A stretch of DNA of 15,250 nucleotides, from the NCBI GenBank assembly GCA_019057865.1, contig JAHLWP010000061.1, positions 1 through 15,250 of the forward strand, in the 5' to 3' direction. Origin of the DNA: Promethearchaeota archaeon (GTDB lineage: Archaea > Asgardarchaeota > Lokiarchaeia > Sigyniarchaeales > SOKP01). Shown piece by piece: positions 1,156 to 6,476 of the stretch. The position numbers and the translations under genes are program-made. The notes beneath the pieces were generated by a model. The model made no database searches. It was not told the DNA's origin and saw nothing but the letters and a program-made list of their open reading frames with translations. Position 1 is the first letter of the stretch. Each line of letters opens with the position of its first letter.

Positions 1156-2559
1156 TCACTCAATGCAACAACTTATAACAGATATATCTCGTTTGAATGA
1201 TTGAGCTGTAAGTTTAATAGCTTCTGACAATGTAGGAAAAACGTGTATTGTGTTAATAACATCATCGAGTGTCATATGGTTCTTAATAATCATAACACCC
1301 TCATGAATTAAATCAGCAGCATTAGTAGATAAAATGTGAATACCTAAAATTTCTTCGGTTTTTCTATTGATAACGATTTTTAGTACTCCTCTATCTTCAT
1401 TAATGATTTTTGATTTAGGTACAAAACCAATTGGAATAGTATTACATCTGCAATCAAAACCCATTTGATTTGCTTGGAGATCAGTTAAGCCGACACTTCC
1501 AACTTGAGGGTTGGTAAAAATGGCATGTGGAACTACTCGATTTTCCATTTTAATCTGTTCATCTGATAAAGCATTAGTAGCAGCAATCATACCTTCTCTT
1601 GCAGCAACAGTTTCGTACATTGGTTCACCTATAACATCTCCAGCAGCCCATATATTTTCTCCTACCTTCATAAATTCGTTAACGATAATTTGTCCCTTCT
1701 TTCCTAAATTTATTCCAATTTCTTCTAATCCTAGATTGTGAGTGTTAGGCTTCCTTCCTGTTGCAATTAAAATTTGTTCTGCTTTAAATGTTGACTCATT
1801 GTTATTATGAAGTACTTTTATTACGTTCTCATTACCTTCATTTTCGATTTCAAGTATATTTGCATTTGTATAAATCTCGATTCCCTCATCTTGAAGATAA
1901 TTTTTTAAATATGTAGAGATCTCAGGTTCTTCATTTGGTACTATGCTATCCAGCATTTCAAAAAGATGAACTTTTGTCCCAAATCGAGAAAATAATTGAG
2001 CAAATTCAACCCCTAAAGCACCCCCACCTAAAACTATCATAGTCTTTGGGAGCTTTTTTAATTGAAGTGCTTCAATGTTAGTGATATAATCAACTTGGTC
2101 AATACCCTTTATTGGTGGAATAAAAGATGAGGAACCTGTAGCAATTATAAATTTCTTTGCTTTGAATGTTTTTTGGTTATCCACTTGAATTTCTGAGTTT
2201 GAAACAAATTTAGCATTACCTTCAACAAGATCAACGTTTGGTAATTTTTTCAAAACATTTTCATATTTATCATGCTGCAATTGGTTGATGAGATTATTTT
2301 TTCCCTCGATGACTTTTTGAAAATTAAAAGAAATCGATGATTTGATCCCTTCAAATCTTTGCTTTCTCGATTCGTAAATTAAATCTCCGATATTTAGTAA
2401 ATATTTTGTTGGAACACACCCTACATTTACACATGTTCCACCTAATCCTATTGCATCGTTATTTACCATTAGGGTTTTAATTTTTAAATCATTAGCTTTC
2501 ATTGCAGCAGCAAATCCAGCAGCGCCTCCGCCAATAATAATTAAATCATAAAAATCCAT
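1156..2559 (-). CDS. merA: Mercuric reductase, core form without NmerA domain
   Basis: GGGAAG FAD motif, redox GGTCVNVGCVP, GGGALG NAD(P) motif, C-terminal vicinal cysteines SCCIE. HVFPTLSE lacks the catalytic His of lipoamide dehydrogenase. Adjacent to a merB-like gene. AGGTGA RBS precedes ATG 2559 (the track starts at GTG 2568). Confidence 0.9.
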   Translation of the reverse strand: MDFYDLIIIGGGAAGFAAAMKANDLKIKTLMVNNDAIGLGGTCVNVGCVPTKYLLNIGDLIYESRKQRFEGIKSSISFNFQKVIEGKNNLINQLQHDKYENVLKKLPNVDLVEGNAKFVSNSEIQVDNQKTFKAKKFIIATGSSSFIPPIKGIDQVDYITNIEALQLKKLPKTMIVLGGGALGVEFAQLFSRFGTKVHLFEMLDSIVPNEEPEISTYLKNYLQDEGIEIYTNANILEIENEGNENVIKVLHNNNESTFKAEQILIATGRKPNTHNLGLEEIGINLGKKGQIIVNEFMKVGENIWAAGDVIGEPMYETVAAREGMIAATNALSDEQIKMENRVVPHAIFTNPQVGSVGLTDLQANQMGFDCRCNTIPIGFVPKSKIINEDRGVLKIVINRKTEEILGIHILSTNAADLIHEGVMIIKNHMTLDDVINTIHVFPTLSEAIKLTAQSFKRDISVISCCIE

Positions 2560-2784
2560 TTTTATCACCTATTAATTAAAATTATAAATTTTTGATACAA
2601 TATTGTCATTTGATTAATAGATAATAATACTTAATTCTAACTATAATTCTTGTTATTATAAAATATTAAAAAAAGAAGATTTCTATTCTTAACCAATAAC
2701 TAATTTTAATATTCAATTCACATTGTAAAAATGATTAAAGAAAATTAATTTTTGTGAGATCCCTAACACTAAATTATTCAGTTA

Positions 2785-3645: not shown

Positions 3646-3802
3646 TTTTCAACATCCTTTGTAAATGTAAAATAGTTAGAAATAAACCTATTCCAACAAT
3701 GGTCTAATATTTATGCTAATTAATAATTTTTTATTTTTATTCTCTAGATTAAGAAAAAAGAAATATTAGATTTATGTTAAAAATTCGAGATCGCCATCCC
3801 GT

Positions 3803-3838
3803 CTCAACCAATAACTAGCATTTGCTTATTGGCATCAT
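3803..3838 (-). promoter_or_regulatory. Eukaryote/Lokiarchaeia-type SECIS element in the 3' UTR
   Basis: Minus-strand RNA: A-UGAU GCCAAUAA GC AAA UGCUAG UUAUUGGU UGAG. It has an AUGA/UGA core, an 8-bp upper stem and AAA 10 nt above the core, and starts 8 nt after the TAA of a gene with in-frame UGAs. Confidence 0.8.
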
Positions 3839-3846
3839 TGATTTTT

Positions 3847-4059
3847 TTATATTGATTTTTTTTCTCTTTCTTGAATTTGTAATCAGGGAACGCTACCATA
3901 TGCACAAAGTACTCAATTTCATCCATGAGGATTTTCTTTCCCAGTAATGATTTCTTTACAATTTTGACATTCAAGACTCATAAGTCATTGATTTTCCTTT
4001 ATTTCTACTGCATTTGAATATCTGCAAAATGGACATTCTACTAGGCATTTATATATCAT
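3847..4059 (-). CDS. GDCCVxC-domain selenoprotein, 70 aa, four in-frame UGA codons read as Sec
   Basis: Manual translation: MIYKCLVECPFCRYSNAVEIKENQULMSLECQNCKEIITGKENPHGUNUVLCAYGSVPULQIQEREKKSI*. UGA at 3987-3985, 3921-3919, 3915-3913 and 3885-3883. Fits the family pattern CPxC...C...ECxxC...GDCCVFCSYGSVPCPPIQ as I recall it. SECIS immediately downstream. Confidence 0.85.
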
Positions 4060-4162: not shown

Positions 4163-4417
4163 CTAACTGTCTTCGATAATCTTTTTAATCTCATCTGGTT
4201 TTGGAATCCCAATAATTTTATGTTTCTCATCAACAATGATGGAGGGAACAGCTTTAATGTCATATTTCTCAATTTTTTCCCGTATCTCTTCTTGAATTAG
4301 ATCTTGTAAATTGTATTCAATTATTTCACATTTTTCGCAAATGTTATTCCTCAATATTTCAATAGCATTTTTACATAAATTACATCCAGCACTAAAAATT
4401 TCAAATTTATGTCCCAT
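4163..4417 (-). CDS. Small thioredoxin/glutaredoxin-fold protein (CxxC plus a second CxxC)
   Basis: FEIFSAGCNLC active site, ICEKC, and the IKAVPSIIVD cis-Pro motif. Confidence 0.85.
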   Translation of the reverse strand: MGHKFEIFSAGCNLCKNAIEILRNNICEKCEIIEYNLQDLIQEEIREKIEKYDIKAVPSIIVDEKHKIIGIPKPDEIKKIIEDS

Positions 4418-6228: not shown

Positions 6229-6350
6229 TAGGTGAGTGTGGATTTTTCGCTCGTTTACAATAGTTTTTGGAATTTATAATTTATAGATGAAGATTTTAAA
6301 TTATTAACTGATATCTTTTTTATTACTAAATATATTAATGATGATATTTA

Positions 6351-6476
6351 ATGGCAAAAATAGAAGTTGCATGCAAAGCATGTGGAATGAAGTTTAAAGG
6401 AAAAACGGAAGAAGAAGCAAAAAAGAAGTTGATGGAACACTCTCAAAAGGCTCATCCTATGCCCAAAAAGATGTAA
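6351..6476 (+). CDS. 41-aa C2H2-type small metal-binding protein (DUF1059-like)
   Basis: MAKIEVACKACGMKFKGKTEEEAKKKLMEHSQKAHPMPKKM*, with CxxC...GxTEEE...HxxxxH. A T-tract follows at about 6509-6522. Not in the ORF track. Confidence 0.75.
   Translation: MAKIEVACKACGMKFKGKTEEEAKKKLMEHSQKAHPMPKKM

Follow-up and report, generated by a model that had tools for sequence, protein, structure and literature searches.

A hairpin on the minus strand (3838-3803), standing 3' of a 70-codon gene with four in-frame UGA codons, is very probably a functional selenocysteine insertion sequence (SECIS) of the kind known as lokiSECIS (type I eSECIS-like). As read from its sequence it lies in the 3' untranslated stretch, where this one element would recode all four UGAs as selenocysteine (Sec); with a second hairpin on its 3' side it extends to about position 3786. 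The window, that is, the whole stretch of DNA analysed, is the entire contig C81 (15,250 nt) of a 4.26-Mb assembly (29% GC) from a Promethearchaeota archaeon. The gene in front of the element, here termed the client gene, specifies a small protein of the GDCCVxC (GOS_B) family and is an Asgard selenoprotein gene absent from published archaeal surveys.

The probable SECIS element and its conservation

The AUGA of the element lies 8 nt from the UAA stop codon (3849-3847) and 44 nt from the last UGA (3885-3883), with the four UGAs placed 146, 80, 74 and 44 nt on its 5' side. An earlier note, which saw here a eukaryote-type SECIS, had these distances, the sequence and the minus-strand coordinates right, and its AUGA...GA kink-turn core with unpaired AAA is indeed as in Loki and eukaryote-like SECIS. 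The element which it delimited is real, but is better framed as AUGA, a stem of nine positions, an 11-nt loop ending in AG, and GA. The parts, with those deduced from the minimum free energy (MFE) fold, are as follows.

3838-3835, minus strand: 5' core motif AUGA, from sequence; AUGA in 10 of 11 orthologues, AAGA in one
3834-3826, minus strand: 5' arm of helix II, UGCCAAUAA, from sequence and fold
3825-3815, minus strand: apical loop of 11 nt, GCAAAUGCUAG, with terminal AG and AAA unpaired, from fold and covariance model alignment
3814-3806, minus strand: 3' arm of helix II, UUAUUGGUU, from sequence and fold
3805-3804, minus strand: 3' core motif GA, from sequence; every canonical element of the genome has GA or AA here
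A3839-A3838-U3837, minus strand: putative kink-turn bulge, geometry inferred
U3841-C3840 with G3803-A3802, minus strand: C-helix of 2 bp, with hairpin III directly 3' of it, MFE fold
3801-3786, minus strand: hairpin III, CGGGAU-GGCG-AUCUCG, MFE fold; kept in the relatives G028, G042 and G022 and in the G045 pseudogene
3848-3779, minus strand: largest plausible extent of the SECIS, with a possible helix I between an A-run (3848-3842, overlapping the stop) and a U-run (3783-3779), drawn by eye

Sheared pairs would be expected between G3836 and A3804 and between A3835 and G3805. Tandem G.A and A.G pairs, with an AAU bulge below them and then a C-helix, constitute the standard kink-turn layout; the sister family has a conserved UGC/GCA as its C-helix. 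Helix I amounts to five A-U pairs at best. The remark in the earlier note that the lower helix is weak was thus right, but it overlooked the conserved second hairpin at 3801-3786.

Helix II begins with a U.U and a G.U position, which are followed by seven Watson-Crick pairs; five of the seven lokiSECIS used to train the covariance model described below are likewise non-standard at the first position. According to the literature lokiSECIS are composed of AUGA, a 9-bp stem, an 11-nt loop whose first five bases favour A, and GA or AA, the last base of the loop being an ultraconserved G usually preceded by A (PMC4989117). Type I eSECIS-like elements have a stem of 7-15 bp with at most two mismatches, a loop of 8-20 nt and an energy below -5 kcal/mol, and G[U/G]AAA loop variants are found in other Asgard lineages (PMC11227280). 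The candidate possesses the core motifs, the stem and loop dimensions and the energy (-8.4 to -9.1 kcal/mol, under the -5 threshold of PMC11227280) of these types, stands behind a UGA-containing gene in a genome with Sec machinery, and is recognized by the covariance model. Its loop, GCAAAUGCUAG, has AAA at positions 3-5 and ends in AG, with GC (AU in G042 and G022) at positions 1-2. In an alternative fold positions 1-2 pair with 7-8 (GC/GC here, AU/GU in G042 and G022), leaving an AAAU tetraloop; a single compensatory change, G-C to A-U in G042 and G022, accompanies it.

A strict pattern scan of the 4.26-Mb genome returned 56 sites with this 9/11 layout, of which 20 have a loop ending in G, and at least nine of these 20 sit behind selenoprotein genes. 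Classical lokiSECIS with loops of the form AAAAA..AG follow three hdrA-vhuD pairs, vhuU and a Prx-like gene (prxL), all with in-frame UGAs, and SECIS-like elements also follow both selD genes, so that the earlier note's expectation of similar hairpins behind the genome's other selenoprotein genes was borne out. Seven further elements of this genome (three hdrA-vhuD, vhuU, prxL and two others), the candidate not among them, served to build a covariance model (R1); the model is limited to 45 columns because the 3' half of the MAFFT alignment of extended elements was too ragged for one structure line. AUGA is invariant in its seven training elements. The candidate ranked first in the window at 25.5 bits (runner-up, 17.1), with an E-value of 0.0065 over the 116 kb searched, and its AUGA and GA were aligned to the invariant columns. 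Genome-wide its two copies (the second, on contig C61, is described below) rank 12th-13th, at least nine of the 11 better matches lying behind demonstrable UGA-containing genes. The model is genus-specific, giving matches in 24 of 24 congeners and in none of 16 genomes of other families; the sister-family and type II elements discussed below are outside its reach and were recognized by position, core motifs and pairing only.

As far as sequences can tell, the comparative evidence is decisive for a SECIS. Searches that read through stop codons located the client gene in 11 related genomes (at least four genera; 29-77% identity). Of the genomes with an orthologue, G068, G074 and G079 are closed as single contigs. 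All keep the four UGAs, and one has a fifth. Every Sec-form is followed by a SECIS-like element 0-108 nt 3' of its stop. In nine orthologues this is a simple hairpin, whose loop measures 11 nt within the genus and 12 nt in members of the sister family, and in two, both of one genus, it carries an apical mini-stem (type II-like). From one lineage to another the stems are wholly different in sequence, but pairing at positions 2-9 is kept in 70 of 72 cells, with two to three pair types per position, while sliding the partners as a control leaves only 29-44 of 72 paired. These pairs were counted by script from coordinates, since a gapless alignment put the 3' arm of the sister family one column off.

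Downstream of the all-Cys Heimdall homologue the R1 search gave no SECIS-like element. The G045 pseudogene (L013 ~1449-1700, minus strand) has three UAA stops, with three UGAs still recognizable, and its stem retains 5 of 8 pairs (14 bits); gene and SECIS appear to be decaying together. In the G071 orthologue (L014 1429-1710, minus strand) the fifth UGA turns the second CxxC into CxxU and the SECIS core reads AAGA; this metagenome-assembled genome (MAG) is fragmented, and either peculiarity could be a sequencing error.

In all nine simple (type I-like) orthologues the last UGA is 43-48 nt from AUGA; the tail of 7-12 codons and the gap of 8-20 nt between stop and AUGA vary oppositely. The two type II-like elements lie 75 and 141 nt from their last UGA. 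The near-constant spacing may reflect a spacing constraint, or it may come from a stop codon drifting within a stretch of fixed length.

Several observations weigh against a functional SECIS. The R1 score is modest, below those of the canonical elements and insufficient alone (genome-wide E = 0.47), and a 23.1-bit match in the Heimdall locus, which was rejected as fortuitous on account of its coding location and poor pairing, marks the level attained by chance. The loop starts with GC, as against the A-run usual in the genus. The A/U pairing of helix I is neither present in the MFE structure nor conserved in G042 or G022. Neither for the element (MFE -9.1 kcal/mol; 61 nt, z = -0.65; 91 nt, z = -1.65) nor for its flanks does the folding energy differ significantly from that of shuffled sequences, and stability by itself is therefore no evidence for a SECIS. 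Rfam SECIS_1 (RF00031) has no match in the whole window at E up to 10, nor in 141 nt around the candidate; because it equally misses the bona fide hdrA-vhuD lokiSECIS of contig C14, this negative is uninformative, and eukaryotic SECIS tools are known to miss lokiSECIS (PMC4989117). Finally, we infer Sec insertion, along with the binding partner, the kink-turn geometry and Hg binding, from sequence.

Might the hairpin then be a chance product of an AU-rich genome, behind a frame that is decaying or non-coding? The insignificant folding energy, the 29% GC of the genome and chance R1 matches in the low twenties of bits would be in keeping with this. The client protein, however, passes a curated family cut-off (NF041374), UGAs and frame are conserved in 11 genomes, and the stem covaries. 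We regard chance as extremely improbable, and these comparisons would seem to have effectively refuted it already.

The Rfam search of the candidate did return weak look-alikes among C/D-box small nucleolar RNAs (13-16 bits, against gathering scores of 39-50). Taken with an AUGAUGC resembling a C box and a UUGAG resembling a D box, they might suggest an archaeal C/D-box small RNA (sRNA) overlapping the 3' end of the gene. When the candidate was examined for the parts of such an RNA only one C-like and one D-like motif were seen, about 30 nt apart, with no C' or D' boxes and no room for the usual two guides of about 12 nt; moreover, the box-like letters are those of the SECIS kink-turn itself, and a bona fide lokiSECIS gives similarly weak matches. 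The probability of a C/D-box sRNA is, in our estimation, close to nil.

A run of five U residues (U5) follows the element, and such a run could be an archaeal termination signal. The pair of hairpins might accordingly be, in the main, a 3'-end, terminator or mRNA-stability structure, or a regulatory site of the L7Ae-binding kink-turn type, instead of a recoding signal; its intergenic position and the weak likeness to C/D-box kink-turn RNAs would agree with this. Against it, the layout matches that behind every other selenoprotein gene of the genome, the element accompanies every Sec-form, is lacking behind the Cys-form and has decayed with the pseudogene, and conserved UGAs need a recoding signal, for which the R1 search of the gene and its surroundings offered nothing else. 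A purely terminating or regulatory role is very unlikely, and we retain the lokiSECIS as the explanation.

The client gene and the probable recoding of its UGAs

The features of the client gene, translated with TGA as Sec (U), are these.

4059-3847, minus strand: client gene, 70 codons, ATG at 4059-4057 and UAA at 3849-3847; NF041374
3985-3987, minus strand: UGA, codon 25 (predicted Sec), in the column where the bacterial and Heimdall Cys-forms have an invariant Cys
3913-3921, minus strand: UGA-AAU-UGA, codons 47-49 (predicted UxU), replacing the vicinal CC of GDCC
3883-3885, minus strand: UGA, codon 59 (predicted Sec), from translation

With U read as C, the protein scores 44.3 bits against NCBIfam NF041374 (cut-off 40), which assigns it to the GDCCVxC/GOS_B family with the pattern CPxC...C...CxxC...GDCCVxC...PC. 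This family, 'GDCCVxC domain-containing (seleno)protein', corresponds to the 'hypothetical protein GOS_B' of Zhang and Gladyshev 2008 (PMC2398784), and bacterial GOS_B is tabulated with a single Sec (PMC13188914). All nine Cys columns of the family are filled by Cys or Sec, and the four Sec (codons 25, 47, 49 and 59) replace exactly the four conserved Cys outside the CPxC...CxxC ribbon and the Cys of VxC. GDCC has become HG-U-x-U, in 12 of 12 aligned Sec-form copies (the 11 related genomes and the C61 copy), and the N-terminal half of the protein resembles zinc ribbons. Asgard selenoprotein surveys list five and seven families, not including this one (PMC4989117, PMC11227280), and our literature search found no paper linking GDCCVxC/GOS_B to Asgard.

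The block consisting of the thioredoxin-like gene, the four-Sec gene, its SECIS and the MerB-like gene recurs on contig C61 (L001 1001-2758; 93% identical), where the SECIS and the last 40 codons are identical to those of the window. Contamination of the MAG is put at 5%, and this second block may represent either a paralogue or a strain variant within it.

The four UGAs, which the earlier note took to be Sec codons, are genuine in that they are conserved in relatives and the frame beyond them is under purifying selection. Within the genus the codons beyond the first UGA show a ratio of non-synonymous to synonymous polymorphism (pN/pS) of 0.26-0.34, as low as that of the codons in front of it. 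Cys is found at the UGA columns in the Heimdall homologue and in at least 592 bacterial loci. UGA is an ordinary stop in the host, ending 197 of 1,643 long frames including merA, and hence has not been reassigned. R1 detected no second SECIS-like match in or near the gene, a dedicated search for bacterial SECIS not having been made; one element would therefore serve all four UGAs, much as the earlier note supposed. This is not new in Loki, since a single SECIS is shared there by HdrA, which has up to five Sec positions, and VhuD, which has two (PMC4989117).

We would envisage a kink-turn, made by AUGA...GA through sheared G.A pairs, which lies beneath the 9-position helix and presents the apical loop with its AAA unpaired; the element would recruit archaeal EFsec and Sec-tRNASec, either directly or through a kink-turn-binding adaptor, so that Sec would be inserted at each of the four UGAs in place of termination. 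With 44 nt between the last UGA and the SECIS, decoding of that codon could leave the hairpin folded; a ribosome terminating at the stop codon, 8 nt from the SECIS, would have to melt it. The product would be a zinc-ribbon-like mini-protein in which the four non-ribbon Cys are exchanged for Sec, and is probably a very high-affinity module for the binding or handing over of soft metal (Hg) beside MerA and the MerB-like lyase, as its motifs and neighbours suggest.

A real SECIS might nonetheless be inefficient, yielding mostly truncated peptides, with the full four-Sec protein made rarely or only when selenium is plentiful. Four recodings within 35 codons, two of them with a single codon in between, would multiply losses, and the weak helix I and an R1 score under those of canonical elements could be read in the same sense. 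We consider this unlikely, as purifying selection does not slacken beyond the first UGA, the four UGAs have been kept over deep divergence without one reversion to Cys among the 12 other Sec-form copies, and the host's other selenoprotein genes are also multi-Sec. Efficient recoding through the one lokiSECIS is thus preferred.

The host and a possible three-way SECIS fold

That the host is an Asgard (Loki-type) archaeon, as the earlier note concluded, is upheld by its genome. A tRNASec candidate, with the anticodon UCA in a CUUCAAA loop and 31 nt inserted into the T-loop, is located on contig C41 (175,206-175,322, minus strand; L028:2707-2823), directly beside SepSecS and about 3 kb from EFsec. 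It was missed by Aragorn and scores 34.6 bits with Rfam tRNA-Sec, below the gathering score; a T-loop insertion is a peculiarity of Loki tRNASec (PMC4989117). Also present are a PSTK homologue and two tandem selD genes, each with one in-frame UGA. A gelsolin-domain protein again points to Asgard, and a MAG named Heimdallarchaeota places in the host's phylum.

Two paralogous proteins of about 165-178 residues have adjacent Sec residues in the motifs ..SGCUU.. and ..HADUU.. and match neither Pfam nor NCBIfam. Their genes (C23 ~88,311-88,900, minus strand, L029:1864-2397(-); and C57 ~15,380-15,911, plus strand, L021:2983-3512) have high-scoring lokiSECIS at their stops (44 and 53 bits). An ACR3 arsenite pump with divergent ArsR precedes one of them, and a CpaM-methyltransferase/HgcA-like corrinoid fusion and an HgcB-like ferredoxin precede the other. 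In these UU proteins there may be another selenoprotein family of Asgard that has gone unlisted and is linked with metal(loid) handling. On C23, MerA-like oxidoreductase fragments (L029:4895-5496, minus strand) lie some 2.5 kb away from the ACR3 pump and its UU protein; they have 83% DNA identity to the merA of the window and look like a broken second copy. R1 matches with no identified client gene lie at C37 ~63,572-63,616 (-), C71 19,114-19,157 (+) and C42 57,201-57,245 (+), scoring 50.6, 42 and 27.9 bits; upstream of the C37 and C71 matches are small membrane-like frames ending in or near UGA.

Nearly all lokiSECIS of the host genome, both selD elements included, have a hairpin at the place of hairpin III, closed by helix I, which pairs the 5' flank with the stretch 3' of hairpin III. 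L017:3352-3440 and L020:3447-3535 are examples of this three-way layout. Under constrained MFE folding both helices were obtained in 22 of 28 non-redundant elements from 24 congeneric genomes (L110-L139), versus 118 of 560 (21%) with shuffled flanks. Over 14 orthologues of the hdrA-vhuD element, pairing reaches 93% in helix I, where two pairs are compensatory, and 87% in hairpin III, where one is. In the texts of PMC4989117 and PMC11227280 such a layout is not mentioned.

We would tentatively suggest, while holding it to be rather doubtful, that the SECIS of this genus, the candidate included, are three-way 'k-junction'-like RNAs of which the GDCCVxC element is a distinct short-range subtype. 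The three-way RNA would comprise the closing helix I, a C-helix of 2-3 bp, the AAU bulge, the G.A/A.G pairs and helix II, with hairpin III leaving the 3' strand; the short-range subtype would be marked by 43-48 nt to the last UGA, a possible GC/GC apical mini-stem and almost no helix I. If this is true, the subtype could be tuned for rapid repeated delivery of Sec to close UGAs.

Gene neighbourhood, related systems and significance

On the same strand the order is an HxlR regulator, the thioredoxin-like gene, the client gene, a gene for a winged-helix/MerB-like lyase and one for the MerA core enzyme. The neighbours, and one feature of the opposite strand, are as follows.

4163-4417, minus strand: thioredoxin-like gene upstream of the client gene, 84 residues; Pfam Thioredoxin_3, 42.1 bits
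2785-3645, minus strand: winged-helix and MerB-like lyase, downstream, 286 residues, no UGA; Pfam MerB 69.7 bits, MerB_rel_SaoL 73 bits, below its cut-off
1156-2568, minus strand: MerA mercury(II) reductase core, 470 residues, without NmerA domain, C-terminus SCCIE, UGA stop; TIGR02053 539 bits, cut-off 454
1156-1158, minus strand: UGA stop of merA which, if there is a single transcript, lies 2.6 kb downstream of the SECIS
6331-6397, plus strand: C/D-box-like RNA with AAUGAUGA near its 5' end and UGA near its 3' end; SNORD113 20.4 bits, E = 6.5; plausibly an archaeal C/D-box sRNA

The earlier note spoke of an operon. A conserved AT-rich stretch precedes the client gene, and given this stretch and the U5 run after the element the gene may be its own transcription unit, so that an operon need not be assumed. 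Within the genus of the window the client gene adjoins merA, with or without the merB-like gene. Among the best 80 bacterial loci of the Cys-form the neighbours met most often are MerTP (20) and regulators of the MerR (14) and ArsR (10) types, together with P-type ATPases and CzcA pumps, and this metal linkage is independent support for a soft-metal role. On the other side, no mer linkage was found outside the genus, the neighbours in the sister family being unrelated; a role in Hg handling is thus not general.

Compared with published lokiSECIS, the candidate has in common the AUGA, the stem of nine positions, the loop of 11 nt with its unpaired A's and final AG, the GA after the stem, a place a few nucleotides past the stop, and the service of several UGAs. 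It differs in a loop starting GC and not AA, a weak helix I, an unlisted client and a last UGA only 44 nt away. Its flanks, UCA-AUGA...GA-GAC, are nearer those of the host's selD elements than the hdrA/vhuD type; descent from a selD SECIS was considered, but apart from the likeness of the flanks there is nothing decisive for it. With eukaryotic SECIS (RF00031) it shares the position in the 3' untranslated region, the AUGA...GA quartet, unpaired apical adenines and distant action on several UGAs. Unlike these, its helix II is shorter (9 positions), Rfam does not match it, and the hairpin of the genus branches off below the kink-turn. 

The SECIS of Methanococcales and Methanopyrus are likewise archaeal signals of untranslated regions. 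The statement in the earlier note that methanogen SECIS lack this core was too strong, as their hdrA/vhuD versions carry [A/G]UGA_[G/A]A (PMC4989117, PMC11227280). In the sequence and fold of the candidate, as judged by reading and no dedicated model having been applied, there is neither the asymmetric GAA_A bulge of euryarchaeal SECIS, which separates a lower stem of some 10 bp from a short GC-only upper one, nor any GC-rich stem.

Bacterial GOS_B/GDCCVxC proteins belong to the same family and share the link to mercury and heavy-metal genes, but are on record with one Sec and have a bacterial SECIS within the coding region after the UGA, whereas the Loki forms have 4-5 Sec, UxU for CC and a lokiSECIS on the 3' side. 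The mRNA of vertebrate selenoprotein P (SelP) has many UGAs in a short frame and SECIS in its 3' untranslated region, and the Sec-rich product has an affinity for soft metals. The parallel with it drawn in the earlier note holds as an analogy only, for the protein is unrelated and SelP has two SECIS hundreds of nucleotides off, compared with one element at 44-146 nt here.

The type of RNA and the service of several UGAs by one SECIS have been published before, and in this respect the advance is incremental. What is added is a Loki-type SECIS recruited beyond the genes hitherto described from Asgard (hydrogenase, Hdr, SelD and redoxin), for what would be a protein with 4-5 Sec in about 70 residues inside a mercury-detoxification cluster. 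SBP2 is not known in Asgard (PMC11227280), and the gene offers a natural test case for one 3' element acting on several close UGAs in an organism without this protein, and for the minimum distance between UGA and SECIS. Gene callers miss such genes, of which annotators should be aware. Sec-rich proteins for metal(loid) handling apparently cluster in the host genome, and the client gene, the two UU proteins and the SECIS matches suggest that Asgard selenoproteomes, especially the part concerned with metal(loid)s, are larger than surveys of known families have indicated.

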